A stretch of 64,000 bases of DNA from a bacterium (GTDB taxonomy: Bacteria > Patescibacteriota > Minisyncoccia > UBA6257 > JAUSGH01). Made by a program: the position numbers and the translations under genes. Of the stretch, positions 10,122-41,558 are shown piece after piece; the first letter of the stretch is position 1, and the number at the start of each line of letters is the position of its first letter. A model generated the notes under the pieces. It worked only from the letters and a program-made list of their open reading frames with translations, had not been told where the DNA came from and did no database searches. The stretch lies in assembly GCA_030649055.1 (NCBI GenBank), contig JAUSGH010000003.1, forward strand, positions 354-64,353, read 5' to 3'.

Positions 10122-12161
10122 CTACACAAACAGCGGAGCAAGTACAAGCGACAGTGTCGCGAGTAATTTAATCAGCACGTGCAATGACGGACCTGCGGTG
10201 TCTTTGAACGGATCGCCAACCGTGTCGCCGGTGACCGCCGCTTTGTGCGCATCAGAGCCCTTGCCGCCGTAATTTCCTTCCTCAATCCACTTCTTCGCGT
10301 TGTCCCACGCGCCACCGGCGTTGTTCAGCGTTGTTGCAAGCAAGATACCGGCAATGGTCGCGACCATCAAAAACCCGGCTTCAGCTTCGGCTTTGAGGGT
10401 CAGACCCACGACAATCGGCATCACAATAACAAGTACACCCGGAAGTACCATTTCCTTTAACGCGCCGCGCGTCGTGATATCAATCGCGGTTGAATAATCC
10501 GGCTTCTCCGTGCCCTGCATAATGCCCGGGTGTTCGCGGAACTGCCGGCGTACTTCGTTGATGATGTAGTACGCAGCTTTGCCGACAGCTCTAATGTTGA
10601 GCGCCGAGAACAAGAATACTAACATTGCGCCAAGCATCGCGCCGACGAACACATCTACCTTTGCAAGATCAACAACTTCCAGACGCACCTCCGTAAGATA
10701 CGCAGAGAACAGCAGGAACGCGGCAAGCGCGGCAGAACCGATGGCGTAGCCCTTTGTTAATGCCTTTGTGGTGTTGCCCGCCGTGTCCAGCTTATCCATC
10801 ACTTTGCGGAAATCACCGGACTCGCCGGAGAGCTCCACAATACCCGCGCCATTGTCGGTGATGGGACCAAAGGTATCCATCGCAAGAATATACGCTGCAG
10901 TCGCGAGCATTCCCATAGTGGCCGCGGCCGTGCCATAAAGCCCGCCGCCGGGAATACCGGACTGTTCACCCAACCAATACGCGCCAAGCAACGCGGAAAC
11001 AATCGCCACAACCGTCATGCCGGTTGACTCCAAACCGACGGAGAAGCCCATAATCACGTTCGTGCCGGAACCGGTCTTTGACGCATCAGCAATGGAAGAA
11101 ACAGGCCGAAAACGCGACTCGGTGTAGTACTGCGTAATGTAGACAAATGCCAAGCTGGTCAAGATTCCCACCATGCCGGCGCCAAAGAACCACAAATACG
11201 ACGCGCCCAAAAGCATTTTCGCCGTAAAGTAAAATGCGATTGCCGCGAGCACCAATGTTACATAGTATCCACGATTTAAGGCCGCCATCGGACTTTCATT
11301 TTCTTTTGCCTTCACCGCGAATATGCCGACAATCGTCGCGATTAAACCGAAGGCGCGAAGCACCAGCGGGAAAATAACACCGCCGACGCCAAAATATGGG
11401 AAGAGCGCCGCGCCAAGAATCATCGCGCCGATATTTTCCGCCGCGGTGGATTCAAAAAGGTCCGCGCCACGTCCGGCGCAGTCACCCACATTGTCACCAA
11501 CGAGGTCCGCGATGACCGCAGGGTTCCTCGGGTCATCTTCCGGAATGCCCGCTTCAACCTTACCCACCAAATCCGCGCCCACATCAGCCGCTTTGGTGTA
11601 AATGCCTCCACCGAGTTGCGCGAAGAGCGCCACGAGCGACGCGCCAAAGCCATAGCCCACAAGCATCGTCGGAATCTTCACTAATTCGTATCCCAAATAT
11701 TTATAAATAAGAAACAATCCGGAAATGCCGAGTAGCGACAAACTCACCACAATCAATCCGGTAATTGCTCCGCCCTTGAACGCCACCTGAAGCGCAGCGT
11801 TAAAACCGTTTTTAGAGGCAGCCGCCGAACGCACATTCGCAGTCGTAGACATCGCCATACCCACGATACCCGCGACGCCCGAAGAAACCGCGCCGAGCGT
11901 AAACGCCAGCAAGGTCTGCCAGCCCGTGGTCACATCCCCATTCACGGCGTAGATAGTAAAAAGGCCGAGTCCCAACGCGACCGAAATCCAGAAAATGGTC
12001 TTATATTGCCGCTTCACGAAAGCATTCGATCCTTCCTTAATAGCAGACGAAATCTTCTGCATGCTCTCCGATCCGGTCGGCTGACGCTTGATCCACACGA
12101 TAAGATACGCGACGAAGATTAACGATAATACGGAAATACCGATTGGCAGGTACTCAATCAT
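10122..12161 (-). CDS. hppA: membrane-bound proton-translocating pyrophosphatase
   Basis: About 16 TM helices; GDNVGDCAGRGADLFES and other H+-PPase signatures. Confidence 0.95.
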   Translation of the reverse strand: MIEYLPIGISVLSLIFVAYLIVWIKRQPTGSESMQKISSAIKEGSNAFVKRQYKTIFWISVALGLGLFTIYAVNGDVTTGWQTLLAFTLGAVSSGVAGIVGMAMSTTANVRSAAASKNGFNAALQVAFKGGAITGLIVVSLSLLGISGLFLIYKYLGYELVKIPTMLVGYGFGASLVALFAQLGGGIYTKAADVGADLVGKVEAGIPEDDPRNPAVIADLVGDNVGDCAGRGADLFESTAAENIGAMILGAALFPYFGVGGVIFPLVLRAFGLIATIVGIFAVKAKENESPMAALNRGYYVTLVLAAIAFYFTAKMLLGASYLWFFGAGMVGILTSLAFVYITQYYTESRFRPVSSIADASKTGSGTNVIMGFSVGLESTGMTVVAIVSALLGAYWLGEQSGIPGGGLYGTAAATMGMLATAAYILAMDTFGPITDNGAGIVELSGESGDFRKVMDKLDTAGNTTKALTKGYAIGSAALAAFLLFSAYLTEVRLEVVDLAKVDVFVGAMLGAMLVFLFSALNIRAVGKAAYYIINEVRRQFREHPGIMQGTEKPDYSTAIDITTRGALKEMVLPGVLVIVMPIVVGLTLKAEAEAGFLMVATIAGILLATTLNNAGGAWDNAKKWIEEGNYGGKGSDAHKAAVTGDTVGDPFKDTAGPSLHVLIKLLATLSLVLAPLFV

Positions 12162-14939: not shown

Positions 14940-15695
14940 CTACCGGAGCTCGTACGTCACGCTCACATTTACTCTAACCTCCTCACTCCCCGGCTCAATC
15001 GTCGGCGCGGGAGCGCCACCATCCGACTTCATTGCCATCGCCTCAAATGAACGAAGATAGATCGGGCCGCCTTGGGACCCTTCGCTAAAGGTGACCACGC
15101 GCCCGATACGGACGCCGTTCTGTCTTGCCATAGCTGCGGCTTTGGAGTACGCGCGATCAAACGCTTCTTCACGCGCCATCACCAGATATTTCTCCGGGTC
15201 TTCAACTTCAAAATTGACGCCTTGGATTTGATTAATGCCAAGAGATGGAAGCTGTCCCAGTATCGGCGATATTTTCGCAAAGTCGCGCAGCTGTACCGAA
15301 ACGGTCTGCGTCAGTGTGTAGCCGGAAATGTAACTCGTACGCTTTTTTTCGTCATAATCATAACGCGGTGAAAGGTTGTACCCGGATGTTTTTATATCTT
15401 TCGCGTCAACATCCTGCGCTTTAATGAAAGCTATCGCGTCATTCATCTTCACCGTGTTGTCGCGCTGAATTACCTCCGGATCCTTGCCTTCAGAAACAAC
15501 AGAAAAGGAAAGTTTTGCGATATCCGGTTCAGCAACAATTTTACCTTCCGCCGAAATAGTTATCGTTCGCGTGATGGGAAGCGAAGCGGTATAACGCCCG
15601 ACGTAATACACCGCGCACCATGTGCCGAACACGATCGTGACAATAAGCGCGACGTCAATCAACACCCAGAAATAATTTTTTGCTTCCTTGATCAT
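14940..15695 (-). CDS. SIMPL/DUF541 (YggE-like) periplasmic protein
   Basis: Characteristic DUF541 sequence; start chosen at MIKEAK, since the upstream extension is a repeat copy (LSLSKDY). Confidence 0.75.
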   Translation of the reverse strand: MIKEAKNYFWVLIDVALIVTIVFGTWCAVYYVGRYTASLPITRTITISAEGKIVAEPDIAKLSFSVVSEGKDPEVIQRDNTVKMNDAIAFIKAQDVDAKDIKTSGYNLSPRYDYDEKKRTSYISGYTLTQTVSVQLRDFAKISPILGQLPSLGINQIQGVNFEVEDPEKYLVMAREEAFDRAYSKAAAMARQNGVRIGRVVTFSEGSQGGPIYLRSFEAMAMKSDGGAPAPTIEPGSEEVRVNVSVTYELR

Positions 15696-15764
15696 GTAAT
15701 CCTTCGACAGGCTCAGGATATAAATATAATAGTTGGTGAGCTTGTCGAACCACAACGTAAAACA

Positions 15765-16569: not shown

Positions 16570-17007
16570 ATGAGTAACTGGCTGAAGGACACAGCGAAGG
16601 AATCGGTGCAACTGGGCAAGTACCTCTCTCTCGGTAGCGCGCTTTTCATTCCCATCCTCCTTACTTATTGGTACTTCACCAACAAGCCCGGGATACGCAC
16701 GGAGGTGAATGAACAGCAACTCTTCGTCGTATGTCTCGCCGGTGTGATGGCCGTAGGCGCGATCCTTCTCACGATTCTGCACGACCTGCACTGGGAAGGG
16801 AGCCGCGCCAAGTACTGGCCGGTGCTTGTGTTCTACGGGAGCACCGTACTCGTGTGGACGGAAGGAGTCCACCTCGTTGCCATCATGCTCGGCGCAACGA
16901 TGACGATCGCACTGCTCTGCATGAAGCTCGACGACTACCTCGCCGCAAGGGGCTGGGGCAGCAAATCCCAGCCACTCGAAAGTCCGGCACACGACGAACT
17001 GCCATAA
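16570..17007 (+). CDS. hypothetical membrane protein (4 TM)
   Basis: aaaggaggacacaATG SD; followed by a Rho-independent terminator. Confidence 0.6.
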   Translation: MSNWLKDTAKESVQLGKYLSLGSALFIPILLTYWYFTNKPGIRTEVNEQQLFVVCLAGVMAVGAILLTILHDLHWEGSRAKYWPVLVFYGSTVLVWTEGVHLVAIMLGATMTIALLCMKLDDYLAARGWGSKSQPLESPAHDELP

Positions 17008-17056
17008 ACAGCACAACAAGCGAACCCGCCCCGAGTAGCCAACGGCTACAGGGGCG
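17006..17056 (+). terminator. Rho-independent terminator (GC hairpin plus T-run)
   Basis: gccccgagtagcc-aac-ggctacaggggcggc followed by ttcatttttatattttt. Confidence 0.7.
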
Positions 17057-17189
17057 GCTTCATTTTTATATTTTTACTCATCGCGTACCAATCCTTACTC
17101 TACTAATACGCGGCCGCGTAATAGTAGAGTAACTGATCTATACCTAATAGATTCCGGGTCAAGCCCGGAATGACAAAAGGTGGTTTATG

Positions 17190-17690
17190 GCGACGCATCG
17201 GAAGACGCCGCGTGTATTTTCCGCAACATATTGGAGCGATGCGTGAAATTCACGAGTAAAGAAATCGCGAAGTCGGAACAATGGCGCTGTGTGAATCCCG
17301 AAGGCCGCCCCGACCGCGGTCGGGGCGAGACAGAGGTTGAGTTCGCCTTATTCCAAGAACCCATCTCAAAAATCCCTCCCAGGCGCGTTTGTAGCGATTT
17401 CCTCGAATCCGCTAGGCGCGAGGAGGAGGTTGTAACCTCTGGGTTACGCCGACGACGAGCAACGCCGCGGGGCGAGGAAATCGCACGAACCCTTCGGGAT
17501 ACGGCCAATTCCAGCGATTCCTTTGTCGCAACTCCCTCGGAGTATCCAGAGGATACACCTTCGGTCGTCGCTCCTCGGACTCGCTGGAATTGACTCGTAT
17601 CGCGACGGGAGGGATTTTTGAGATGGGTTCCAACTTCGCGGTTTTTTACGAGAAAAATTTCCGCGAGCAGAAATCGTTGCGGAAAATACA
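17190..17690. repeat. large nested inverted-repeat (rod-like) element, most likely non-coding
   Basis: 21-bp perfect IR at 17197-17217 and 17667-17687; 24-bp perfect IR at 17358-17381 and 17607-17630; inner IRs at 17495-17520 and 17575-17600; lies between convergent gene ends. Confidence 0.45.
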
Positions 17691-17700
17691 CGCGGCGACT

Positions 17701-19608
17701 TCAACTGCCGGGAGCCATCCTGTGCTCGTAGTACCACTGCAATACATCCTTCACAATCGGAATCGTGTTCAAACTCCCCTCTTTTGCGTCTTCAATAAGT
17801 ACAAGGATCGCAAGCTCGGGATTTTCTGCCGGAGCGTAGCCAACAAAGAAGGCATTGGTTTTCGTGTTGTTCTGAATCTGCGCGCTGCCGGTTTTGCCCG
17901 CGACCGTCAATGGTAAATCAGCGAGTTTGTGCGCCGTGCCATAATCCTTTTGCACGGCGGCGTTCATTCCCTGCTGTACTTCGTGGATTTCCGAGACATA
18001 TTCAGAAAAATCCAAAATGTCGCGCGGATGCGCAGACTCCACAATTTCGCCCTTCGCGTCACGAACAGTCTGCATAAGGTATGGCTGTTTCTCGTGTCCG
18101 CCCGCGCCGATAGCACCGATAAAGGAAAGCAGGCGCAGCGGCGTCACCATCATGTCACCCTGGCCGATGCTCACGTTGTACGTATCGCCCACTCTCCACG
18201 GCCTGCCGGTGCGCCGCTCGTGTTCTTCTGGTCCGTAAAAAATGCCGGATGCCTCTCCGGGTAAATCAACGCCGGTGCGGTCGGCAAAACCAAAGTCGCG
18301 CCAATACGATTCAATGCGCGCTACCCCCAATCCCTTCTTGTCACCAAAGCCACCGCCCAGCACATAAAAATAAATGTTACTGGAACGCGCGAGTGCCGAG
18401 TACAAATTCACCCAGCCGTGCGCCTTCCAGTCCAAAAACTTACTCGGATGCGCGGGATCATACGGATTCGCGAGCTCCAAAACGCCGGAAGAAAAAACGG
18501 ATGTTGTGGGGTCAATCACGCCCTCGTGAAGTCCGGCAAGCGCCATCATCGGCTTGATGGTTGAACCCGGGCTATACACGCCGGAAACGGCGCGATTAAA
18601 CAGCGGATGCGCCGCGTCGCGGAGTAAGCGACCCCGCGCGTCATTTTTCCCGGAAAGCGTAAAGAGGTTATCATCATAACTCGGCAAATTCACGAGCGAT
18701 AAAATTTCTCCGGTTTTGGGATTGAGAATGATTCCGACGCCCGCGGTGCGTCCGAGCAGGCGTAAGCCATCACGCATACGACCGTAAAAATATTGCTGCA
18801 GTTCGCCGTCAATCGTTGTTTCCAGCGTATTGCCGGGCGTCGGCTCCATGCTCACGCGCTTTTCAAGCACGTTCCCTCGCACATCGCGCATGATGCGCTC
18901 ATAGCCATCTTCGCCGCGAAGGAGTGTGTCATAAAACGCCTCAAGTCCGTCTTTGCCTTGAATGGTGCGGCCAATATCTCCGATGCCGGTGTAGCCCAGG
19001 AGGTGCGCGAAGGCGGGTCCGTAGAGGTAATTCCGGCGATAATCATTCGCGATCCCGACTGCCGGCTCATTTAATCCTTTAAGTGCGATCGCGGTTTCAA
19101 CCGAAACGCCCTGCTCCAGAAGCAGTTGCGCGCTTCGCTCCAAGTCCGCTAGGCGCACAATATCGCCAATGTCACCCCGAAGCTCATCCGCGGACAATAT
19201 ACCGCGCAAACGTTCAATGAACGTAAGTCTCGCCTCCGGATCCTTTTTTAAAAATTCGGGAACATTCAAAAAAACACTGAAAATCGGTTCGTTGCTAACA
19301 AGCGGAAGACCGGTCCGATCCACAATCACTCCGCGTTGTGCCGGTAATACGGTCTCCTTGCTCGCGTTCCCCGCCGCGCGCGCAACATAAAAATCTCCGC
19401 GCGTGATGTTCAAATAACCGACACGGATAAACATGGCTGTAACGGCAAAAAATGCGACTGCGACAGCGCCGACAAAAACAGAGCGATGCAACGGCAACTC
19501 TAATGACGCAGGACTTCGGCCAAGCCCGTCGAACATCGCTTCTTCAAAATGCAAATCATCGTTTTTCATTAAAATTTTGTATAAGCATCGTGAAAAACAG
19601 CGAAACAA
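17701..19608 (-). CDS. mrdA: penicillin-binding protein 2 (peptidoglycan D,D-transpeptidase)
   Basis: STIKP (SxxK), SxN and KTGS transpeptidase motifs; N-terminal TM. Confidence 0.9.
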   Translation of the reverse strand: MFRCFSRCLYKILMKNDDLHFEEAMFDGLGRSPASLELPLHRSVFVGAVAVAFFAVTAMFIRVGYLNITRGDFYVARAAGNASKETVLPAQRGVIVDRTGLPLVSNEPIFSVFLNVPEFLKKDPEARLTFIERLRGILSADELRGDIGDIVRLADLERSAQLLLEQGVSVETAIALKGLNEPAVGIANDYRRNYLYGPAFAHLLGYTGIGDIGRTIQGKDGLEAFYDTLLRGEDGYERIMRDVRGNVLEKRVSMEPTPGNTLETTIDGELQQYFYGRMRDGLRLLGRTAGVGIILNPKTGEILSLVNLPSYDDNLFTLSGKNDARGRLLRDAAHPLFNRAVSGVYSPGSTIKPMMALAGLHEGVIDPTTSVFSSGVLELANPYDPAHPSKFLDWKAHGWVNLYSALARSSNIYFYVLGGGFGDKKGLGVARIESYWRDFGFADRTGVDLPGEASGIFYGPEEHERRTGRPWRVGDTYNVSIGQGDMMVTPLRLLSFIGAIGAGGHEKQPYLMQTVRDAKGEIVESAHPRDILDFSEYVSEIHEVQQGMNAAVQKDYGTAHKLADLPLTVAGKTGSAQIQNNTKTNAFFVGYAPAENPELAILVLIEDAKEGSLNTIPIVKDVLQWYYEHRMAPGS

Positions 19609-20011
19609 ACGCTGTCGTAAGAAGCTCCGTGAGTAGCGCCGCGCGCGCGGAAAACATAACCCGATTCGTCAGCGCGTAAAATCCTGCAACCCCACCGGCA
19701 GAGAGCATCGGATTTAACAACGCCGGGTGCAGCGGCACAAATCGCCGGCCAAGAGAGACGAGGAACGCGACGAGCAACAGCGCAAGCGATGCGCCTTGAA
19801 GCACCGGGATGGTTTTGAGCATCGCCACGGCCGCGATCACCAAAAAACCAACCACCGACGCCGGCACGGCCATAAGCAGCGCCGGAAGTCCTGCCATAAA
19901 AAAGTTTATATTAGCGCCGAACACCGTGAACACATGCGACGATTGCGCGCCGATAGATATAAGGAACAGCGCCGAGAAAAGAATGGTGCGTAATGACGAT
20001 TGAGGGCGCAT
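19556..20011 (-). CDS. mreD: rod shape-determining protein MreD
   Basis: Small polytopic membrane protein between mreC and mrdA; its start overlaps mrdA. Confidence 0.65.
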   Translation of the reverse strand: MRPQSSLRTILFSALFLISIGAQSSHVFTVFGANINFFMAGLPALLMAVPASVVGFLVIAAVAMLKTIPVLQGASLALLLVAFLVSLGRRFVPLHPALLNPMLSAGGVAGFYALTNRVMFSARAALLTELLTTAFVSLFFTMLIQNFNEKR

Positions 20012-20015
20012 ATGA

Positions 20016-20720
20016 TTATCGGACAACAAATACTGTCGTCAAATCATGCAAACTGTACGGCAGCGTCAGTGGCGCCTCCACAAACGCGGCACCCGGGTTT
20101 TCCCGCACCTCGGAAACGCTTCCCACAACAAGGCCATAAGGCAAATCGCGGCTTGTTGCGTATACCGGATCACCGACCGCGACGGGTTTCCCTTTCGCGA
20201 TAAGCGTAATCACCGGCGTTGCTCCGCCACGTAAAAGACCGTTCGTCGCCGAAGAACCGATACGCACGGGAATGTCGTGCGTGAGGTCAAACACGGTCCG
20301 CGCTTCGCTCCAGTCGTTCTCCACGCGAATAACCTGCCCCAACAGAATTCCTTTCGCGGCGAGCACGGCCGCGCCTTCGCGGATTCCCGCGGAGGCACCA
20401 GAGGCAAGCGTCAGCACGGACTTATCATTCAGCGGATAGAGCGCGTAGACCTTCGCGGCGATGAGCGGCGCATCGCGGCGAGGAAAGTCATCCTTCCGCG
20501 CCAGAAGTTCCGCGCGCAAACTTTGGTTTTCCATCGCAAGGGCGCCAAACTCACGCGCGATATCAAGCCGCAAGAATGCACCTTTCACAAGAAGAAACGG
20601 CAATGCGAACACGCTTTTTACTTGTCCAACAAAAGAGTCGGACGCGCGAGCAAAAACACCGCCATAAAAAATAGACCCAAGGAAAAAGATAGTTGTGATG
20701 ACAAAAAAGAGGTAGCGCAT
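20016..20720 (-). CDS. mreC: rod shape-determining protein MreC
   Basis: N-terminal TM plus coiled-coil then beta-rich domain; start set at MRYLFFV, since the longer ORF overlaps mreB. Confidence 0.75.
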   Translation of the reverse strand: MRYLFFVITTIFFLGSIFYGGVFARASDSFVGQVKSVFALPFLLVKGAFLRLDIAREFGALAMENQSLRAELLARKDDFPRRDAPLIAAKVYALYPLNDKSVLTLASGASAGIREGAAVLAAKGILLGQVIRVENDWSEARTVFDLTHDIPVRIGSSATNGLLRGGATPVITLIAKGKPVAVGDPVYATSRDLPYGLVVGSVSEVRENPGAAFVEAPLTLPYSLHDLTTVFVVR

Positions 20721-20871
20721 AAAACGAGAGAACCCATCTAAAAAATAGACCCCGACGCGATACGAGTCAATTCCGGCGAGTTCTAGGAGCGACGACGAAA
20801 TCGTATCCACTGAGATACCTTGAGGAGGAGCGACAACGAAATCGCCGGAATTGGCCGTATCCCGGAGGGCT

Positions 20872-21915
20872 CTACAAGGTGATCTCCCGTGGCGTAAACG
20901 GATTGTGCAGAATCGCCATATATTTCTCAAAGTTTTCCACGGCAATGCCGGTCCCGCGCGCAACGCACGTCAGAGGGTCTTCCACAATCGTTGCCGCAAC
21001 CTGTAAATCCTTGCTGATGTATTGGTCAATGCCGCGCAGCAAACTTCCGCCGCCGCAGAGATAAATACCACGCCGCAAAATATCCCCTGCAAGCTCCGGG
21101 GGGGTCACCTCAATCACCTCTTTGATGGACTCGGTGATAATCTTCAACGACTTACTGATTGCCGCGCGTGCTTGCGCGTCACGCACCACAACCTCATTCG
21201 GAAGTCCGGTTGCCAAATCTCTTCCTCGCACCGTCATCTCCATTTTCTGCTCCAAAGGAATTGCGGAGCCGATGGTGACCTTGAGTTCCTCCGCCGTCGG
21301 GTCGCCGATCGCGAGACGAAATTCATCACGCACAAAACGGATAAGATCTTCGTTCAGCCGGTCACCCGCGATTTTCAGACTTTTCGCGACAACCGTTCCG
21401 CCCATGGAAATAACGGCGATCTCTGTTGTGCCTCCGCCAATGTCCACAATCAAGTTCGCGGTCGGTTCATCCACCGGCAACCGGGCGCCCAAGGCAGCGG
21501 CAATGGATTCTTCGATAATAAACGCCTTGTGTATTCCGGCACCCACCACCGCGTCCTCAACGGATTTTCGTTCCACTTCAGTCAAGTTGCTCGGCGCGCC
21601 AACAACCGCGCGGCGGTAATGCCACAACTTTCTAGTGTCCACGGTACGCATAAAATGGCGGAGCATTTCTTGTGTTGTTTCAAAATCCGAGATAACGCCG
21701 TTGGTGAGCGGCCGCACTACATTCACGTGTGCCGGCGTGCGGCCAATCATCTTGCGCGCTTCATCGCCCGCGGCAACCACGGCGCCGGTTTTATTATTTA
21801 TGGCAACCACCGACGGCTCATTCACCACAATGCCGCGCCCCGCGACGTATACAAGAGTATTCGCCGTGCCAAGGTCAATGCCGATATTTTTCGTGAAATA
21901 GTCTAAAAACTTCAT
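20872..21915 (-). CDS. mreB: rod shape-determining protein MreB (actin-like)
   Basis: GIDLGTANTLVY and the rest of the actin-fold motifs. Confidence 0.95.
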   Translation of the reverse strand: MKFLDYFTKNIGIDLGTANTLVYVAGRGIVVNEPSVVAINNKTGAVVAAGDEARKMIGRTPAHVNVVRPLTNGVISDFETTQEMLRHFMRTVDTRKLWHYRRAVVGAPSNLTEVERKSVEDAVVGAGIHKAFIIEESIAAALGARLPVDEPTANLIVDIGGGTTEIAVISMGGTVVAKSLKIAGDRLNEDLIRFVRDEFRLAIGDPTAEELKVTIGSAIPLEQKMEMTVRGRDLATGLPNEVVVRDAQARAAISKSLKIITESIKEVIEVTPPELAGDILRRGIYLCGGGSLLRGIDQYISKDLQVAATIVEDPLTCVARGTGIAVENFEKYMAILHNPFTPREITL

Positions 21916-21944
21916 AACATATTACGGTAATCCTTCGACGGTGC

Positions 21945-23204
21945 TCAGGAAATATTTATACGCTGAGCCTGTCGAAGCGCTACCATAGATGCAACAAGTT
22001 TCACCTTGCCGCTCGCGCGTTCCTTCACTTCAACTTTCTTCGCCGCGACGGTTTTTGCGCTCACGAGGCACCGCAACGGAACGCCGAGCAAATCCGCATC
22101 CGCGAATTTTTCTCCGGCGGAAACCTCGCGATCGTCAAAGAGCACCTCAACGCCGCGCTTTGTTAAATCCGCATACAGTTTTTTCGCCGCCGCACGCTCT
22201 TTCGCGCCGTCACCAAGAAGTACCAAATGCACGTCAAATGGAGCGATGGACTTCGGCCAAATAATACCGCGCTCATCGTGGCTCACTTCAACAACCGTCG
22301 CGACAATACGCGAAGGGCCGATGCCATACGAACCCATAACCACCGGCCGCGACACGCCGTCCTTATCCAAAAACTTTACGCCGAAGGCATCCGCGTAGCG
22401 CGTACCGAGCGGAAACACATTCGCAACCTCAATCGCATTGCCACTCAAAATTTTTCCTGCGCACTTCGGACACTTGCCGCTACCGGACATCATGTCGGGG
22501 CTCGCCACCTCTTTATTCTGCGCGTAGTGACATTTTTCACAATAATACACCGTGTCCTCGCCCGAAGGCGCGAGCACTTGAAACTCGTGCGTGTACTCTT
22601 TTGTGAAAGCGCCCCCCGCGGCTTCCGTAATGAGATACTTCAAACCGATGCGCTTCATAATTTTTTCATACGCTTTGATGACCGTCGCGTAATACGCATC
22701 CAAACCCGCTTTGTCGGCATGGAAACTGTAAAGGTCTTTCATCATAAACTCTCTGCCCCGAAGCAAACCATTTTTCGCGCGTGGTTCCGAACGGAACTTC
22801 GTCTGAATCTGGTACACCGCCTTCGGCAAATCTTTATATGATTGGATGAAATGCTGGGCGATTGCAGTGATGACCTCCTCGTGCGTCCAGCCCAAACCAA
22901 ACTCTTCGCCGGCTTGCGTCTTCAATTTATAGATCACGTCAACATCCCAGCGCTTGGATTTCTCCCAATACTCTTTCGCAACCAGCGCATTCATAAGCAA
23001 CTCCTCCGCGCCAATGGCGTTCATTTCTTCACGAACGATGTTGACCACCTTCTGCAACACGCGAAATCCCAACGGCAGAAACGTAAATACGCCCGCCGAC
23101 ATTTTGCGGATAAATCCCCCGCGCAAAAGATACTTCGCGTTCACCGCCTCCTCATCCTTCGGGAAGGTCTTTGTTGTTTTTGAAAAAAGTTGAGAGAATA
23201 ACAT
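21945..23204 (-). CDS. proS: prolyl-tRNA synthetase (short form lacking the editing domain)
   Basis: Class II motifs (FRSEPRAKNGLLRGREFMMKD); C-terminal VALRQAQ comes from a repeat copy. Confidence 0.88.
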   Translation of the reverse strand: MLFSQLFSKTTKTFPKDEEAVNAKYLLRGGFIRKMSAGVFTFLPLGFRVLQKVVNIVREEMNAIGAEELLMNALVAKEYWEKSKRWDVDVIYKLKTQAGEEFGLGWTHEEVITAIAQHFIQSYKDLPKAVYQIQTKFRSEPRAKNGLLRGREFMMKDLYSFHADKAGLDAYYATVIKAYEKIMKRIGLKYLITEAAGGAFTKEYTHEFQVLAPSGEDTVYYCEKCHYAQNKEVASPDMMSGSGKCPKCAGKILSGNAIEVANVFPLGTRYADAFGVKFLDKDGVSRPVVMGSYGIGPSRIVATVVEVSHDERGIIWPKSIAPFDVHLVLLGDGAKERAAAKKLYADLTKRGVEVLFDDREVSAGEKFADADLLGVPLRCLVSAKTVAAKKVEVKERASGKVKLVASMVALRQAQRINIS

Positions 23205-23379
23205 CGCGGCACAAACGATTAAAATATTGCCTGAGCCTGTCGAAGGCCTTACCTAGTCCCTGCTCCGATTGTAGCAATATCAAAAAGAAAAGCAAATGAG
23301 ATAAAGTGTCTGAAAAATGTAACAGCTCGCATCGGTATGAACCCGATGCGAGCCGTAACGCTGAACTTGTCCCGAGACC

Positions 23380-23808
23380 CTACCACAAGTTGTTGACTCG
23401 CATGTACTCGCCGATCTTCCTGCGGACCTCCGCGTTCTCCCCACGCACGGCGTTCCGCGTGAAGTTCTCCTTCGTGCTCTTGCCGGAATGGTTCAGAAGC
23501 TCCTGAATGAACAAATCGGTGACACGGTAGATGCTCCCACGACGCTCCAGAAGCCCGGCGGCGGCGAGGGCGCCCCACCAATCCTTACGCTGGGGAACCC
23601 GGAAGGTCACCCAGCGCCTCTCCTTCACGCACTTGCGGAGAATCTCCACGGCGACCAACTCGGGCTCAGTCTTCCCGAAGAGCGAGTTGAAAGAGATGCC
23701 ACGATTCACAATAAACTGCGGCGTCACCTTCGTACGGTCCACCTTGGTCATGAGCGCGCTCATGATTCGTACCTCCACGAAGCCGGAGCAGCTTTGCGCC
23801 ATCACCAC
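23380..23808 (-). CDS. hypothetical protein
   Basis: ORF in a GC-rich segment; start uncertain (MSALMTKVDR is likely). Confidence 0.4.
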   Translation of the reverse strand: MVMAQSCSGFVEVRIMSALMTKVDRTKVTPQFIVNRGISFNSLFGKTEPELVAVEILRKCVKERRWVTFRVPQRKDWWGALAAAGLLERRGSIYRVTDLFIQELLNHSGKSTKENFTRNAVRGENAEVRRKIGEYMRVNNLW

Positions 23809-24072
23809 GACAGCGCGTCAGCCATTCCGTGACTACGCAACATCTTAACAAATCTAGTACGTCATGTCAAGTGCGGTGAACCAGCGCGCCCCGCAGACAC
23901 TCAAACTCCCACTCACGTTTGCCCTGATGCCTGCTTGGATCTCTCCATCAACACACTGCGCAGCTTTGCGGCGTTTTCGGCGCCAACGCCGTCAATGTGC
24001 GCCTGCATGCCGGAAGAAAAGCCCGCGGTTTCCAAATGCACGTCATAGAGGGCGAGCGACCGGTCAATGACA

Positions 24073-25086
24073 TTAGAACAGTCGCACCACGTCCCTCGCC
24101 GTCACCATCACAATCAGCGCCAAAAGAATTGCAAAGCCGGTCGCATTCGCAATCATCTCAAACCGCGGAGAAAGGCGTGAACCTTTGATTTTTTCAAATA
24201 CCAGAAACAGCAACCGCCCGCCGTCCAAGGCAGGGAACGGCATAATGTTTAACACTGCGAGGTTTAGTGAAATCGCGCCGATAAGCTGAAACAGAAACGC
24301 GAGTCCCAACGATCCGGTTTGTTGGGCAACGGAAAAAATGCCGACGGGCCCGACAAATCCTTCAAGCAACTTGCCCTGCGTGAACAACGACACGAGGATG
24401 CTCCACAGCCCCACAACAACCGACGCCATCATAATTGCCGACTGCACAAATCCTTCGCGGAGCGCGGCAAATAGCGGCAACGGCGCCGCTCCCGCCTCGG
24501 CAACAACGACGCCCAACACTCCTCCGCCACCGTTCGCCGGTTTTGGTGCCGCGCTAACTGCGATACGCCGCCCCTCGCGCACAATGTTTAACACGATGAC
24601 TTCCTCAACATGCGCGCGGATGTAACTCGTGAAGGCGCTCCCTTCCGTAAAGCCGGTAATAAAATCTCCCGCAAGAAGTCCTGCTTCAGCGGCGCCAGAA
24701 TCAGGCAGCACGCGGTCAACGAGCAACCCCCGCGGCGTACCGATAAAAAGCACTGCGGAAACAATCAGCCAACCGAGCACGACATTCATCGCAACTCCGG
24801 CCGCAATCACAACCAAGCGTTTCCACGCCGGCTGGGCAATAAAACTCCGCGCGTCATTCATGTCAGCCGTACCTGCCGTCTCGCCGTGCAAGCGCACAAA
24901 TCCGCCAAGCGGCAAGAGATTGACGCTGTACATGGTCTCTCCTTTTATTTTTCCGAACAGCCGCGGCGGAAACCCAATGCCGAACTCATCTACGCGCACG
25001 CCGAACGCCTTTGCGCAAATAAAATGCCCGAACTCATGGGCGAGAATGAGCAATGCGATGCCGAGGATAGTTAAGAAAATAATCAT
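24073..25086 (-). CDS. rseP: RIP metalloprotease RseP (site-2 protease)
   Basis: HEFGHF zinc motif in TM1; PDZ; LDG motif. Confidence 0.92.
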   Translation of the reverse strand: MIIFLTILGIALLILAHEFGHFICAKAFGVRVDEFGIGFPPRLFGKIKGETMYSVNLLPLGGFVRLHGETAGTADMNDARSFIAQPAWKRLVVIAAGVAMNVVLGWLIVSAVLFIGTPRGLLVDRVLPDSGAAEAGLLAGDFITGFTEGSAFTSYIRAHVEEVIVLNIVREGRRIAVSAAPKPANGGGGVLGVVVAEAGAAPLPLFAALREGFVQSAIMMASVVVGLWSILVSLFTQGKLLEGFVGPVGIFSVAQQTGSLGLAFLFQLIGAISLNLAVLNIMPFPALDGGRLLFLVFEKIKGSRLSPRFEMIANATGFAILLALIVMVTARDVVRLF

Positions 25087-25178
25087 GGCTCAAGATTTAT
25101 TAGCTTCGTTAGCTTTTTAGCTTCATTAGAGGAAAGCCTGTTGCCTAACGAAGCTAACCATCTAATGAAGCTGACCGC

Positions 25179-25724
25179 CTATTCCTGAATCTCCTTCACC
25201 TTCGCCGCCAAATGCTCCTCAATGCTTTTATTCGCCTTATCCACCGCCTCCTGCGCTTTCTTTCTCAGCGCAAACTTTTCATTTTCCGAAATCGCTTTTT
25301 CCTTTTCGGCGCGCTCTATTTTTTTCATCTCCTCGTCGCGCGCTCCGCGGATGCTGATGCGATGTTCTTCACAAACTTTTTTCGCGAGCTTTTCTATTTC
25401 AGATCTTCGTTCGCCGGTCATCGCAGGCAGCGTGACCCGCACAATTGTTCCCTGCACCGCGACTGAAAGTCCCAAGTTCGCCGCCTCAATGCCTTTCGCA
25501 ATTGCCGCGAGTGAATGCTGATCCCACGCGTTGACCAACAAGTCGCGCGGCGGAGCGATGGTGATGGACCCGAGCTGCTTCACCGACATGTGCGCGTCCA
25601 TATACTCCACCGCGACATCTTCGATCATTTTCGGCGACGGACGATTGGTGCGCAACCCCGAAAGTTCATTCTTCAAATTCTCCCCGATACGTTTTAATTT
25701 TTCCTCAAAATCTTTGATGTCCAT
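25179..25724 (-). CDS. frr: ribosome recycling factor
   Basis: Full-length RRF similarity. Confidence 0.93.
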   Translation of the reverse strand: MDIKDFEEKLKRIGENLKNELSGLRTNRPSPKMIEDVAVEYMDAHMSVKQLGSITIAPPRDLLVNAWDQHSLAAIAKGIEAANLGLSVAVQGTIVRVTLPAMTGERRSEIEKLAKKVCEEHRISIRGARDEEMKKIERAEKEKAISENEKFALRKKAQEAVDKANKSIEEHLAAKVKEIQE

Positions 25725-25813
25725 ATATATGGATAGTAACGGATGATCGCCCGCGGCGCAATTTCAAAAATCCGCTATACTAAAAACAGTGATTGTTTGT
25801 AAGGAGTACTGCT

Positions 25814-26443
25814 GTGTTTGATTTGCCGTATGCAGCACCGACGCTCTGGCCGAAATTCGAGCATATGCTCGGCTCTTACACGCCGGCAGAAATGATCCAA
25901 GCCTGCCTCTGCCACACAGGCCTTGGCGCGTGGATCGCGGTGTTCGTCACCGTCGCCACCATCGTCATGCTCCGCTGGGCGTGGAAGCGCGCCGCACCGG
26001 TCGAGACGGTGATCGCGCTGACCGAGGAGGGGCGAACGCGCGAGTACTACGCGCAGTGCGTCAAACACGTCGCGATAATGGCGCTACTTGGCGGCCTCGC
26101 AGGAAACGCCGTGGATATTGACCACATCATCGCCAAACTCCTCTTCCCTTGGTATACCTGCGGAAGACTCTTGCACACGGCGGGGTTTCACATCGGCGCG
26201 TTCTTCCTCGTCGTTATCTACGCTCGGCTCGCGGCTTTCGTTATGGGAGGCGTGCTTGCGCACTTCCGCTGGTCGCCGATCGCAAGCATCGGCGACGGAA
26301 TCATCGGCCTTGCGGCGCATGGATGGGACATAAAGGATCCACGATTCCTGTGGAAATTCACCACGTACTACACGTGGCGCACCGTCGCTGCGTGGGTAGT
26401 CGTGACACACGTCTTAGAGGACTACGCATGGAACTTGTTCTAG
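25814..26443 (+). CDS. hypothetical polytopic membrane protein
   Basis: aaggag then a 7-nt spacer then GTG; followed by a terminator of the gggctcttcactttttag type. Confidence 0.55.
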   Translation: MFDLPYAAPTLWPKFEHMLGSYTPAEMIQACLCHTGLGAWIAVFVTVATIVMLRWAWKRAAPVETVIALTEEGRTREYYAQCVKHVAIMALLGGLAGNAVDIDHIIAKLLFPWYTCGRLLHTAGFHIGAFFLVVIYARLAAFVMGGVLAHFRWSPIASIGDGIIGLAAHGWDIKDPRFLWKFTTYYTWRTVAAWVVVTHVLEDYAWNLF

Positions 26444-26880
26444 CGACTCGCGAGAGCCCGGTCTGCCTCGGCAGCCGGGCTCTTCACTTTTTAGAATCAA
26501 AGGGCGTGAAACGCCTACATTATCATCACTTCACCACCTCCCTAATACGACGCAGGAAGCGTAGGCGTGCTTTCGAGCGAGCATGTTGGAGCGATACTAT
26601 ACACGACTGATACATTCCGCCGCGCTATTCTTTTTCGTAACCTAAGTGCAGCCGAGTCAGAAAACCGTGAGTGAAGGGCGGATTTTTTGACCATGCACGA
26701 ATGAGACGGAAAATCCTCCCGCCTGCGGGCGGGAGGAGGAACGCGAGCCTCGTTCGTGCATTCAAAAAATCAACCGCAGCGAACGGGCTTTCTCGAGGCG
26801 GAGCGGGTAAGAAAAAGAATGGAGCGGCGGAATGAGCCGGACCCGTGAACAATACTATGCAGGGCTTTCGCGAGGTGGAT

Positions 26881-27624
26881 TCACGCATCCAACAACGTCT
26901 CCAACTGCAACTTCCTGTTCGTATTAAAATCCTGCATCTTCGCCCACCTCTCCGTCAGCCGCCCCATGAGCCGCACATGTTTCACCGGATCCTTGCGGCA
27001 CTCTATCAACACATGCCGCACGAAATGCGCGAGTAGCTGTTCGACGCGCGAAAGCTCCTCGGCTTCCAGCACATCCGCAATAATAACTCTCCGCTCCGCG
27101 ACAGCGCCCGCAACAAATTTCTTTGCCAACTGCGCCGCTGTTTTTTCGGCGCCCGAAAGCTCCTCCTCTCCCTCGCTCCCCACATATATTTTTTGGAAAC
27201 GCGAAGCAAGTGGCGCCACAATTACCCTCGGGTCAAGCGCACTCATCAAAATTAGTCCGTGCTCCGGCGGCTCCTCAACGGTTTTCAAAAACGCGTGCTG
27301 CGCCTCGGTAGACAGCGCATCCGCGCCATTCACAAAAACCGTTTTCCGCGCCGCGCGCAGCGGTTTTTGCCACAAAAAAGTAATTGCCTCCCGCACACTT
27401 CCGATGCTGATAGTTCCGCCGTCACCGGCCCCAAATTCACGGCTATCAATACACAAGCCATCGCACGAGGTCTTTCCGCATTCAAGGAGCGCGATAATCG
27501 CGCGGCAGACATTAGCAATCGCGGTCGGCGATTCGCCCCAAAAAAGATACGCGTGGCCCAACCGCCCTTCCGCAATATGGACCTTAAAATCGCTTATTAA
27601 GGAGTGTGCGCTTGTAGACATCAA
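26881..27624 (-). CDS. holB: DNA polymerase III delta' subunit
   Basis: GHAYLFWG and FLKTVEEPPEHGLILM motifs. Confidence 0.82.
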   Translation of the reverse strand: MMSTSAHSLISDFKVHIAEGRLGHAYLFWGESPTAIANVCRAIIALLECGKTSCDGLCIDSREFGAGDGGTISIGSVREAITFLWQKPLRAARKTVFVNGADALSTEAQHAFLKTVEEPPEHGLILMSALDPRVIVAPLASRFQKIYVGSEGEEELSGAEKTAAQLAKKFVAGAVAERRVIIADVLEAEELSRVEQLLAHFVRHVLIECRKDPVKHVRLMGRLTERWAKMQDFNTNRKLQLETLLDA

Positions 27625-28594
27625 GGTGGTTCAAAATAAGTCCGGCGCCTTTGGCAACGCAGAATAACGGCTCCTCCGCGATATACGTTTCCACTCCGGT
27701 CATACGCTTAAAGAAGTCATCGATGCCACGCAAATGTCCGCCGCCGCCCGAAACGAGAATACCCTGCTCCATAATATCCGCCACAAGTTCCGGTGGAGTG
27801 CTATTAAACACATTCTGCACCGTAGTTGCGATTTCGATAAGCAACGGATTCAAACTTTCGGCGATTTCATTGGAATTCAGCACGATGTCGCGCGGCAATC
27901 CGTACACCAAGTCACGGCCGCGAATCTGATATTCCAATTTTTCCTTTGACGGCAGCGCCGCCCCGATTTGAATTTTCACCGCCTCCGCGGTTTGCTCACC
28001 GATGGAAAGCGAATACTTGCGTTTCACGTAATCAATGATGGCCTGGTCAAACTTATTTCCCGCGACTTTTAAGCTCGCCCACGACACAATGCCGCCGAGT
28101 GAAATCACCGCGACCTCGGAGGTACCACCGCCGATGTTGATAATCATATTGCCGGAGTGATGATTGATGGTGATACCCGCGCCTAAGGCGGCCAAAATCG
28201 GCTCTTTCACAATATAGACTTCTTTCGCTCCGGCCTCACGTCCGGCGTTGATCACCGCGCGACGCTCAACCGAAGACACGCCCGCGGGAACGGAAAGCAC
28301 GACTTCCGGTTTGACGATATTAAATGAGCCTGTTGCTTTCGCGATAAAATACTTGAGCATCGCGCGCGTAATGTAGTAGTCGGCAATGACGCCGTCTTTC
28401 ATCGGACGGTACGCGACAATATCATCCGGCGTGCGGCCAATCATATCTTTTGCTTCGCGGCCAACGGCAAGCACGGTATTATCCGGCACGCTCATCGCGA
28501 CGATCGTCGGCTCATTGATGACAAACCCTTTGCCCGGCACAAACACGATGGTGTTCACCGTGCCGAGGTCAATACCTATTTTCCGTGTAAACAT
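27584..28594 (-). CDS. MreB/Mbl-like actin homolog (second paralog)
   Basis: GIDLGTVNTIVF and full actin-fold motifs; paralogous to the mreB at 20872..21915. Confidence 0.9.
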   Translation of the reverse strand: MFTRKIGIDLGTVNTIVFVPGKGFVINEPTIVAMSVPDNTVLAVGREAKDMIGRTPDDIVAYRPMKDGVIADYYITRAMLKYFIAKATGSFNIVKPEVVLSVPAGVSSVERRAVINAGREAGAKEVYIVKEPILAALGAGITINHHSGNMIINIGGGTSEVAVISLGGIVSWASLKVAGNKFDQAIIDYVKRKYSLSIGEQTAEAVKIQIGAALPSKEKLEYQIRGRDLVYGLPRDIVLNSNEIAESLNPLLIEIATTVQNVFNSTPPELVADIMEQGILVSGGGGHLRGIDDFFKRMTGVETYIAEEPLFCVAKGAGLILNHLDVYKRTLLNKRF

Positions 28595-28597
28595 AGT

Positions 28598-28636
28598 TCA
28601 ATAAAACAATAAAGCAATAAAGCAATAAAGCAAAGC
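28598..28636. repeat. tandem 8-bp repeat (GCAATAAA)n
   Basis: Seen directly; inverted relative to the array at 29015..29090. Confidence 0.8.
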
Positions 28637-28641
28637 GTTCG

Positions 28642-29004
28642 TTACCGTTCTATCCTTTGGTCCAGTCCACGTATTTCCGCCCAAAGCATCGCGCCAATTT
28701 CATCCGCAATGACAGCGCCGCGTTCGTAGTCTTTAGCAGAAATGTACTTTTCAACAAAAGCAAAATGAAGAAGGTACCGGGATTCTTTGAAAGAACCGAA
28801 TGCTATTTCAAGAAAATTCAGACGTACGAGAGGTTTCCGCCGGGCATATCCCTCAATATAATTTAAAACAACAGAAAGGGTGGCACGCCGAAACTGCGAC
28901 GTAACACCGAAAAGCTCTTCTCTAGGAAAGTTTTTTGTAATTGCGTAAACAAGGTGAGTATAGTCATCCATTTTACCTTTAAGTTTTTCCTGAAAATCAT
29001 TCAT
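28642..29004 (-). CDS. four-helix-bundle protein (TIGR02436-like; the family encoded by 23S rRNA intervening sequences)
   Basis: ITKNFPREELFGVTSQFRRATLSVVLNYIEGYAR matches the family hallmark. Confidence 0.8.
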   Translation of the reverse strand: MNDFQEKLKGKMDDYTHLVYAITKNFPREELFGVTSQFRRATLSVVLNYIEGYARRKPLVRLNFLEIAFGSFKESRYLLHFAFVEKYISAKDYERGAVIADEIGAMLWAEIRGLDQRIER

Positions 29005-29014
29005 CGTCTTGCAT

Positions 29015-29090
29015 GATTGTTTTTGTATTTTTGTTTCGTTGTTTTGATGCTCTGATGCTTTATTGCTTCGTTGTTTTATTGCTTTTATGC
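29015..29090. repeat. degenerate tandem 8-bp repeat (TTGCTTTN)n
   Basis: Seen directly. Confidence 0.75.
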
Positions 29091-30380
29091 CTTCCGCACA
29101 ATGTCCGCGCCAAGCAGCCGCAACCTTTCCTCAATCCGTTCATACCCGCGGTCAATTTCTTCAATGCCGGAAATAACCGACTCGCCCGTGGCGGTCAATG
29201 CCGCGATGATGTGCGCGATGCCGCTCCGCAAATCACGCACCGTAACATTCGCCCCGTGAAGCGGCGTCGGCCCGTTGATCACCGCGCTGTGATTAAAACC
29301 TTTGCCATTAAACCGGCACGTCAGTTCACCGAGACACTTGGAAAAAACAGTGATGTACGCGCCCATGGCATTCAAGTCCGCGGTGTAACCAAAACGATCG
29401 TCATACACGGTTTCATGAATAATTGAGGCACCCATCGCCTGCGTCAAAAGCACCGCGAACGGCTGCTGCCAATCGGTCATAAATCCCGGGTGCGGATCGG
29501 TTTCAATTTCGGCGGCTTTAAGTTCGCTGGAGCGCCAAAAACGGATGCCACCATCTTTCACTTCATATTCCCCGCCGACCCTGCGCAACGTACTTAAAAA
29601 TGTACTCAGGTGATCTTGCACCGCTCCGCGCACGAACACGTCACCATCGGTCGCAACCGCAAGGCACGCGAACGACACCGCTTCGTTCCGATCCGGAATC
29701 ACGGCGTGAGTAACGCCGCGGAGTTTTTTGACGCCGTCAATATGAAACGCGCGATTGGCGCCAAGTTCAATGATGGCTCCCATTTTTTGGAGCATCTTCA
29801 CCAGCTCCTTCACCTCCGGCTCACGCGCGGCATTATAAATGCTCGTTCTCCCCTCGGCCAGCACCGCCGCTAATATGATGTTCTCCGTCGCGCCGACCGA
29901 TGGATAGCGCAGCCGGATTTTTGTCCCATGCAAACCGCCTTTCGCCGTAGCAACATAACGCTCCCCCGCAATTTCAATTGAGGCACCCATCGCGCGAAGC
30001 GCCTCAAGGTGAATATCCACCGGCCGCGCGCCGATTTTATCTCCCCCTAAAAACGGGATCTCGGCCTCGCCAACGCGCGCAAGCAAAGGACCAAGCGCAA
30101 GTATCGGAATGCGATTTTTTCTTGAAAGCGAGCCGACGCGAGAGTTTTTAATCTCCGGCGTTTTAATGCGAAGCGTTTTTCCTTCACGCACAATTTCGCT
30201 TCCGATCATGCGACAAAGCTCTTCGGTAATCTCAAGCTCACCGATGTCCGGCACATTGGAAAACACGCATTCCTCGTCGGTAAGAAGCGACGCGATGAGC
30301 ACTTTGCTCGCGCCGTTTTTCGCGCCCGAAAGCGCAATTTCTCCTTTCAATTTTTTCCCGCCGTGGATGATGAATTGCAT
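29085..30380 (-). CDS. murA: UDP-N-acetylglucosamine 1-carboxyvinyltransferase
   Basis: Full-length MurA similarity; start set at MQFIIHGG, since the upstream ORF extension is repeat-derived. Confidence 0.93.
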   Translation of the reverse strand: MQFIIHGGKKLKGEIALSGAKNGASKVLIASLLTDEECVFSNVPDIGELEITEELCRMIGSEIVREGKTLRIKTPEIKNSRVGSLSRKNRIPILALGPLLARVGEAEIPFLGGDKIGARPVDIHLEALRAMGASIEIAGERYVATAKGGLHGTKIRLRYPSVGATENIILAAVLAEGRTSIYNAAREPEVKELVKMLQKMGAIIELGANRAFHIDGVKKLRGVTHAVIPDRNEAVSFACLAVATDGDVFVRGAVQDHLSTFLSTLRRVGGEYEVKDGGIRFWRSSELKAAEIETDPHPGFMTDWQQPFAVLLTQAMGASIIHETVYDDRFGYTADLNAMGAYITVFSKCLGELTCRFNGKGFNHSAVINGPTPLHGANVTVRDLRSGIAHIIAALTATGESVISGIEEIDRGYERIEERLRLLGADIVRKA

Positions 30381-40264: not shown

Positions 40265-40306
40265 AACTGCTTCCTAACTTCACGATCGTGAAGTTAGGAA
40301 GCAGTT
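40265..40306. repeat. 42-bp perfect palindrome aactgcttcctaacttcacgatcgtgaagttaggaagcagtt (copy 1)
   Basis: Seen directly; identical copy at 40946..40987. Confidence 0.9.
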
Positions 40307-40945: not shown

Positions 40946-40987
40946 AACTGCTTCCTAACTTCACGATCGTGAAGTTAGGAAGCAGTT
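40946..40987. repeat. 42-bp perfect palindrome (copy 2)
   Basis: Identical to 40265..40306. Confidence 0.9.
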
Positions 40988-41490: not shown

Positions 41491-41558
41491 AAATGTATTC
41501 CTTCGACAGGCTCAGGAAATAATTTTATTATGCGCTGAGCTTGTCGAAGCGCTACCTT

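Follow-up and report, generated by a model that had tools for sequence, protein, structure and literature searches.

The region studied here, positions 17190-17705 of a 64,000-nucleotide stretch of bacterial DNA (hereafter the window), lies between two convergent genes, as the initial annotation had described: a PBP2 gene on the minus strand (17701..19608) and a 145-aa ORF on the plus strand (16570..17007). A repeat search of the window found concentric inverted repeats across this region. The outermost arms (17201-17227/17676-17702) measure 27 nt and match at 96%, and those of an inner element (17357-17380/17607-17630) measure 24 nt and match at 100%. Further in lie the arms of a short hairpin (17394-17405/17473-17484; 12 nt, 100%) and of a long hairpin (17506-17521/17577-17592; 16 nt, 94%), and a perfect 22-nt GC palindrome occupies 17306-17327. 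The earlier arm lengths of 24 and 12 nt are borne out, while the outermost pair is 27 nt rather than the 21 first given. Complementarity of 76% is maintained between the outer arms over 79 nt. The left arm does carry an extra piece with a GC hairpin, at 77 nt (17280-17356) instead of about 100 and with hairpin arms of 11 bp instead of 9.

The 516-nt stretch is predicted to fold at -264.9 kcal/mol on the plus strand and -274.8 kcal/mol on the minus strand, against about -179 +/- 6 kcal/mol for dinucleotide shuffles (z = -13.8 and -16.1, respectively), and none of the 100 shuffles folds as well, so that the nested inverted repeats reported at the outset form a structure far beyond chance. In place of the one long bulged hairpin described earlier, the outer arms pair with each other; the inner part is not a continuation of a single rod and instead forms two side-by-side hairpins shut by the 24-bp helix. 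An independent short-read Logan contig (L001, from SRR13727527) equals window positions 17419-29801 exactly; it ends within the element and reproduces 17419-17703 of the rod without change. An assembly artefact is ruled out by the imperfect arms and by the agreement of independent assemblies, both for this pair (window and L001) and for a homologous composite discussed below (L051 and L029).

Further palindromes lie beside the rod. A REP-like hairpin at 17151..17177 (GATTCCGGGTCAAGCCCGGAATGAC) adjoins it, and the same hairpin type, GTCATTCC-loop-GGAATC, stands beside the outer repeat here and in two other genomes (17151-17177 in the window, 5686-5712 in L051 and about 8905-8950 in L061); it translates to peptides of the ...IPAQAGIQ... 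/ ...WIPACAGMT... type. A 38-nt palindrome at 17095..17132, centred on GCGGCCGC, is kept at the orthologous place in two Candidatus Harrisonbacteria MAGs (about 4302-4340 in L065, and L066). Since these MAGs have no composite, we assign this palindrome to the ancestral intergenic region, outside the composite. Several other hairpin repeat families occur in the same genome. One of them, TTCGACAGGCTCAG ... CTGAGCYTGTCGAAG, precedes several genes including mreB, with copies at 15690-15755, 21920-21990, 41490-41560, 44380-44425, 44950-45010 and 46957-47019; one copy of this family falls within the called start of a SIMPL-domain ORF (MWFDKLTN...). At 40265-40306 and 40946-40987, separated by 680 nt, stand two perfect 42-nt palindromes of the same sequence, ACAACTGCTTCCTAACTTCACGATCGTGAAGTTAGGAAGCAGTT.

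Alignment of homologous copies separates the rod into two repeats, one interrupted by the other. The outer repeat of ~235 bp comprises 17196-17356 and 17631-17703, and an nhmmer profile of it covers 17196-17360 in the window. Its left arm (17196..17279) pairs with its right arm (17631..17703), as seen from the inverted repeats and from covariation in the alignment, and the final bases of the right arm overlap the TGA stop of PBP2 (17701-17703). The 77-nt piece (17280..17356) is, from the copy alignments, an asymmetric apical domain whose flanks, GGAAYAAGGCGAACTCAACCT ... GGGATTCAYRCAGCGCCATTGTTCC, are almost invariant among the outer copies, while its central GC hairpin (17306-17327) differs in sequence and length in every one of them. 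These copies occupy non-orthologous intergenic sites: after PBP2 in the window, at two sites 2.6 kb apart in L061, and upstream of typA in L051. Their available flanks contain no associated transposase gene of the RAYT kind that accompanies REP.

The initial annotation had proposed a comparison of the tpiA-to-PBP2 interval, and among relatives the insertion states of this interval do differ. The closest relatives by PBP2 were MAGs at 88% and 74% identity, followed by Candidatus Harrisonbacteria at 72%. The 88% relative (L061) carries an outer copy at this orthologous site (8965-9203, after PBP2), where a different 25-nt palindrome, CCTGCCTGCCGGTAGGCAGGTTACC, occupies the exact insertion point of the inner element. 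A second outer copy in L061 (11568-11775), between a hydrolase gene and nusA, has its right arm joined straight to the apical domain and carries its own perfect 24-bp terminal repeat. The other relatives are empty: in L064 (74%) merely 164 nt separate PBP2 from tpiA, and in L065 and L066 (72%) the composite is missing and a palindrome and a terminator, orthologous to window 17095-17132 and 17022-17061, come 45 nt after the PBP2 stop. Since L061 has an outer repeat at the orthologous place after PBP2, the outer repeat at this locus is older than the split between the window lineage and L061, and its internal loop has been a repeated target of insertion. In 16 kb of L061 we also noted at least four copies of a short palindrome family, ACCTGCCTGCCGGCAGGCAGGT (5795-5816, 9035-9059, about 9380-9410 and 11830-11880); those in the mreB-mreC gap and at the outer-repeat apex sit in the same two places as the window copies of the inner element, described next.

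The inner element (17357..17630) is 274 bp long and bounded by perfect 24-bp terminal inverted repeats, GAACCCATCTCAAAAATCCCTCCC (17357-17380 and 17607-17630), so that its ends read GAACCCATCTCAAAAAT ... ATTTTTGAGATGGGTTC. Within it are two hairpin units, one short (about 17381-17486) and one long (about 17487-17606). Self-comparison showed that its left half (17357-17452) is a diverged copy matching the reverse complement of 17537-17630, the repeated unit being the long hairpin with a 24-nt tail, GGGAGGGATTTTTGAGATGGGTTC. Of the two strands, the one starting GAACCC gives the long unit its better fold (z about -7). In size and content it resembles a miniature inverted-repeat transposable element (MITE): it holds no transposase gene, and the ORFs that cross it are without homologues. 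At 92% identity it matches 5235-5510 of L051, in another genomic context, and it is missing from both outer copies in L061 (L061a and L061b). Filled and empty sites are thus available twice, in the outer repeat (window and L051 versus L061a and L061b) and at infA (L014 and L035 versus L016-L021, below). The two terminal repeats, perfect in the window, differ at 2 of 24 positions in L051 and at 4 of 24 in L014. The flanking bases are TTG/TTG in the window (TG/TT as dinucleotides), TTA/TTG in L051 (TA/TT) and CG/TA in L014; target-site duplications at the Paceibacterota inner copies are degraded.

The 64-kb window holds one full copy of the inner element and one half copy. The latter, a solo long hairpin unit of 143 bp at 20730..20872, is 82% identical to 17487-17630 over 145 nt, lies in the opposite orientation and fills the gap from the mreB stop TAG (20872-20874, minus strand) to the likely mreC start, ATG 20720. 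L061 and L065 have no copy at this place and L064 has a degenerate one. On the minus strand the copy contains TTGACT, 17 nt and TATTTT (20742-20770) directed toward mreC, a weak promoter-like site of a kind found at chance frequency, and in L001 the MreC call takes a GTG within the repeat as its start, which brings the protein to 264 aa against about 233. For the two copies, a diversity-generating retroelement (DGR) with its template and variable repeats was considered on account of a bAvd-like gene 11 kb off and rejected, as the copies are inverted and their differences are of all kinds, including compensatory pairs. The protein bAvd is an accessory protein of diversity-generating retroelements. 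The gene in question, of 120 aa (window about 28642-29004, minus strand; L001 798-1160), has precomputed Pfam matches to the 23S rRNA intervening-sequence protein and bAvd; it adjoins a second MreB-like gene, and the 12-kb contig L001 shows no reverse transcriptase.

One genome-collection scan with the tail motif led to a homologue in a Candidatus Paceibacterota MAG (L014 1279-1557), about 66% identical to the inner element and with the same two-hairpin arrangement. Its right-hand tail provides the ribosome-binding site and ATG of infA, downstream of which follow rpmJ, rpsM, rpsK, rpsD and rpoA. A metagenome contig orthologous to it (L035; flanks 90% identical) has kept the insertion, with infA in frame from the element ATG (MGSTESKK). 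Loci from five relatives retrieved via IF-1 (L016, L017/L018, L019/L020, L021) have a TTGACA...TACAAT promoter, a leader of ~20 nt and the infA ATG with no element between, and in L016, which has an IF-1 of 97% identity, the two flanks of the L014 element directly adjoin each other. Because these infA sites are empty and the L014 flanks are contiguous in L016, the element of 274-279 bp is a discrete insertion, and in the lineage of L014 and L035 it appears to have replaced the start of the essential gene infA. In these two loci (L014 1279-1777; L035 about 670-1178, reverse strand) the 279-bp element separates the infA promoter from the coding sequence, and its terminal GGGAG...ATG is the sole available infA start, so that IF-1 begins Met-Gly-Ser; paired termini would sequester the ribosome-binding site and AUG, and three of the four mismatches between the termini are G.U on the mRNA strand. 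A cis-regulatory infA leader acting by such sequestration, which L014 had brought to mind, was rejected: the sequence lies upstream of infA in L014 and L035 only and is missing in the five other relatives, and the window has no infA.

One metagenome scan yielded a second composite (L051) together with an identical one (L029) from another sample. These share only the composite of roughly 500 bp with the window; on one side stand obgE and typA, and on the other an Ala/Lys/Glu-rich protein and a DsbA-like protein. As L051 and the window have no genes in common, the divergence of the inner and outer parts has no gene calibration. The outer arms and 77-nt piece of L051 match the window in reverse at 74%, while the inner 274 bp matches directly at 92%, and the inner segment is therefore flipped relative to its outer frame between the two genomes.

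Beyond Paceibacterota, scans for the terminal motif gave 36 distinct matches. The free positions of the pattern are strongly biased among them (G in 28/36, T in 22/36), and the two bases following GGGTTC are TA in 9. Groups of these loci share the 50 nt before the motif and diverge right after it. An inverted partner lies 20-315 nt off in at least nine distinct loci, delimiting elements of 46-340 bp whose interiors are unrelated to the Paceibacterota copies, on contigs that otherwise share no sequence with the window. Four such loci (L030, L039, L041, L034) have TA on both sides in CTAG-like targets, and two further motif elements are flanked by other identical dinucleotides. The motif-bearing MAGs are labelled Anaerolineales, Desulfobacterales, Burkholderiales, Sphingomonadaceae and Eubacteriales. 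From these shared ends, the inner termini would define a wider MITE family. The sharp conservation boundary had also brought to mind an IS200/IS605 right end bearing a TnpB guide-RNA scaffold, a candidate rejected on account of the housekeeping neighbours, inverted partners and TA duplications. In about 50 terminal-motif loci, whose neighbours are housekeeping genes, and in plasmid records we found no transposase with matching ends; the plasmid records gave no match, and four scans of viral contigs gave chance matches only. Literature searched for the terminal sequence returned unrelated papers, mostly on eukaryotes, and none on bacterial repeats or transposons. The inner element may be mobilised in trans, by a TA-duplicating DDE transposase specific to its termini; the candidates, we presume, are of the IS630/Tc1-mariner or IS5/IS427 types.

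Taken together, the rod is probably a composite of non-autonomous palindromic repeats, one nested in the other, carried by an uncultured, ultra-small bacterium of Paceibacteria type (CPR, Harrisonbacteria-like). Two different repeat families are nested, with a third, REP-like hairpin adjoining; both nested types have copies at non-orthologous loci, show filled as well as empty sites and lack a transposase gene. In this reading the older extragenic palindromic repeat of ~235 bp fills the gap after PBP2, the 274-bp MITE interrupts it at an internal loop close to the apex, and mreB and mreC are separated by a half-length MITE copy. By analogy with ERIC and Correia repeats, the outer repeat, when transcribed in neighbouring mRNAs, would act only as a long RNA hairpin, either a transcript-end stabiliser or an RNase target. 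A foldback-type non-autonomous element, one of the two interpretations offered by the initial annotation, finds its mobility backed by the filled and empty sites and the unrelated contexts, although it has to be divided into two nested families instead of one element. The composite belongs among MITEs and extragenic palindromic repeats, ordinary genomic parasites of kinds already known, and would be no surprise to a specialist in bacterial repeats.

Several observations sit less easily with nested mobile repeats and have to be weighed against other explanations. Entry of the inner element at the same outer-repeat point in two genomes, in opposite orientations, needs either a strong target preference or a later inversion, and the second option leads to a reading in which the inner 274 bp is an invertible DNA switch whose recombination at the 24-bp repeats swaps the hairpin placed before an outward ribosome-binding site and ATG. 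The opposite orientation of the segment in L051 and the window, relative to the outer arms and 77-nt piece, agrees with it, as do the perfect 24-bp repeats of the window and the junction on the side of the 77-nt piece, which is identical in both (GGGTTC followed directly by TTGGAA), as expected of one insertion later inverted. Yet each assembly shows a single orientation (the window with L001, L051 with L029), L001 breaks at 17419, away from any repeat boundary, and the neighbours (PBP2, mreD, mreC, mreB, the 145-aa ORF and tpiA) include no recombinase. The inner segment has no promoter-like site within it and stands alone, as a plain insertion with no outer frame, in L014 and L035, and its identity of 92% between the two genomes, versus 74% for the outer parts, better fits separate, later insertions; we regard the switch as improbable. 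The outward ATG also raises the question of small proteins, either from the terminal ATG (MGS...) or from the ORFs through the rod. Each terminus has GGGAGG and then, 11 nt on, ATG, which resembles a ribosome-binding site and start codon, and in L014 and L035 this same ATG is the sole possible infA start. A 59-aa minus-strand ORF (17364..17185) and its L051 counterpart have MGSWNKANSTS...SGFTQRHCSD in common, with a length difference that stays in frame, and the plus-strand ORF and L051 have MGSN..F.E..F.E.K.L.KI.A..S in common without indels. Against this, a 168-aa ORF had no match among 5.8 billion proteins, the uninterrupted outer copies L061a and L061b have no ATG before the same sequence, and the bases of the ORFs are wholly accounted for by conserved helices. 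Two long overlapping ORFs do exist, Arg/Ser/Glu-rich in composition and mirror images of each other on the two strands; the earlier view that they are not genes agrees with the lack of homologues and with starts that come from the inner-element termini, so that real small proteins seem extremely improbable here. That protein search was also a way to reach further copies through spuriously called proteins, and it brought up none. The PBP2 frame itself stays open for 169 codons past its TGA, through the whole composite (17185-17703, minus strand), probably by chance, as one frame in three; a gene caller or stop-codon read-through would lengthen PBP2 through the composite.

The nested-repeat reading must also contend with outer terminal arms that vary in sequence yet covary, which fits selection on pairing better than fixed recognition by a transposase, and this points to an explanation at the RNA level, also raised by the initial annotation: the outer repeat, or the whole rod, would be an undescribed structured RNA, either a multi-copy small RNA gene or a cis-acting transcript hairpin, in which the inner MITE is tolerated as self-closing. 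In an alignment of four outer copies with inserts excised, 61 pairs are formed and 94.7% of cells are paired; 14 pairs have changed on both sides, where shuffles give 6.1 +/- 1.7 (0/500) and slid partners no more than 5, and 9 of the 18 terminal-stem pairs covary, although this covariation rests on four sequences from related genomes. The apical domain hardly varies, except for its central hairpin, which changes in sequence and still pairs in every copy; in the inner long hairpin, 10 of 34 pairs are compensatory among six long units. On the strand co-directional with neighbouring genes, cells of G.U versus A.C number 5:0 in the window, 2:0 in L061a and 4:0 in L061b; neighbouring genes have the other direction in L051, and the count there is 1:4. 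This polarity suggests either selection on pairing in transcripts or a transcription-linked C-to-T mutation bias. Set against the RNA explanation are the varied contexts and orientations of the copies, the apical domain in L051 being read opposite relative to local transcription, and the better-folding strand of the mreB-mreC copy, which is antisense to the operon; promoter and terminator signals in the region are no higher than chance. An Rfam family that explained the structure would have been the natural counter-evidence to the initial annotation, and none was found: a scan of the window gave a tmRNA and two tRNAs only, with nothing in the rod, a permissive scan of the region gave as its best match the S15 leader (E = 0.09; 18.6 bits against a threshold of 39.5), and 40 homologous or motif loci gave nothing relevant at gathering or permissive thresholds. 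The earlier proposal of a structured non-coding RNA keeps some plausibility for the outer part, whose stems covary past both controls with wobbles on the locally transcribed strand, and fares less well in its varied settings and its lack of an own promoter, terminator or Rfam match. As an explanation of the locus in its own right we judge it unlikely. It is in part compatible with nested mobile repeats, in our analysis, because ERIC and Correia repeats are likewise both mobile and RNA hairpins. A bolder reading, which we also hold to be unlikely, would make the outer repeat a structured RNA element of Paceibacteria, multi-copy and as yet undescribed, with pairing selected on whichever strand is transcribed and with an internal loop that other repeats prefer as a landing site. 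The inner-MITE termini may in addition have become portable translation-start modules (GGGAG, 11 nt, ATG) in this lineage, one of which now provides the sole infA start codon in another Paceibacterota species.

Read as a nested composite of mobile palindromic repeats, the locus bears on how genomes of this group are assembled and annotated. CPR/Patescibacteria have small genomes with a high coding density, and few studies have dealt with the repeats in them; the present locus shows that such genomes hold several hairpin-forming repeat families, nested at gene boundaries. Repeats of this kind break short-read assemblies, as in SRR13727527, where the contigs L001 (ending at 17419) and L020 (starting 76 nt before infA) end in repeats, and they mislead gene callers, which then predict spurious ORFs or wrongly extended N termini, the 264-aa MreC of L001 being one such call. 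That TA-flanked elements elsewhere have the terminal motif in common points to a transposase family of wide distribution, and a catalogue of its non-autonomous derivatives could be drawn up. Among the side results, the more interesting are the donation of a start codon to infA, a clear example of a mobile repeat in place of the start of an essential gene, together with the reused insertion point, the wobble polarity and the presence of the motif in several bacterial orders. No paper linking MITEs with CPR/Patescibacteria was among the top-ranked results of a full-text literature search, and by those results this is the first MITE case found in this bacterial group.

The outer repeat recalls the ERIC/IRU repeats of enterobacteria, which are likewise imperfect palindromes in transcribed intergenic DNA, found at non-orthologous loci in either orientation, and which likewise have extra DNA inserted at a fixed internal point. 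Some ERIC copies reportedly carry inserts at specific internal sites, as Hulton in 1991, Sharples and Lloyd in 1990 and Wilson and Sharp in 2006 are said to have described. The outer repeat differs in its length, about 235 bp versus 127 bp, and in terminal arms that covary while their sequence is not fixed. ERIC RNA hairpins influence the stability of flanking transcripts (PMC2229807).

For the inner element, the RUP repeat of Streptococcus pneumoniae offers a parallel in its proposed mobilisation: this MITE uses TA as its insertion site and is presumably mobilised by the transposase of IS630-Spn1, an element with similar ends (PMC2229807), whereas no parent insertion sequence with GAACCCATCTCAAAAAT termini was found in the motif loci or plasmid records. 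Open frames run through the repeat here as they do in the RPE of Rickettsia and in MITEs that fuse in frame (PMC2229807). In L014 and L035 the likeness to RPE extends to an element end fused in frame to infA, which adds Met-Gly-Ser to IF-1, while the window has no fused gene, its elements abutting stop codons (PBP2, mreB) outside coding sequence. Further counterparts are the Correia/NEMIS elements of Neisseria. The likeness is one of features, in a different host phylum (CPR/Paceibacteria); the target duplications at Paceibacterota copies are degraded, and an IHF site and RNase III processing are not among the shared features. Like the inner element, Correia/NEMIS elements are small, lack autonomy and end in inverted repeats of ~24 bp with TA at the termini; they come in a long and a short form, of 274 and 143 bp in the present case, and are found at gene boundaries, where they form long stem-loops within neighbouring mRNAs, as is predicted here (PMC2229807). 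Bacterial MITEs in general are described as small, bounded by terminal inverted repeats with TA at their ends, able to form long stem-loops and crossed by open frames (PMC2229807), and in our comparison the features of the inner element and of the terminal-motif family match that published description.
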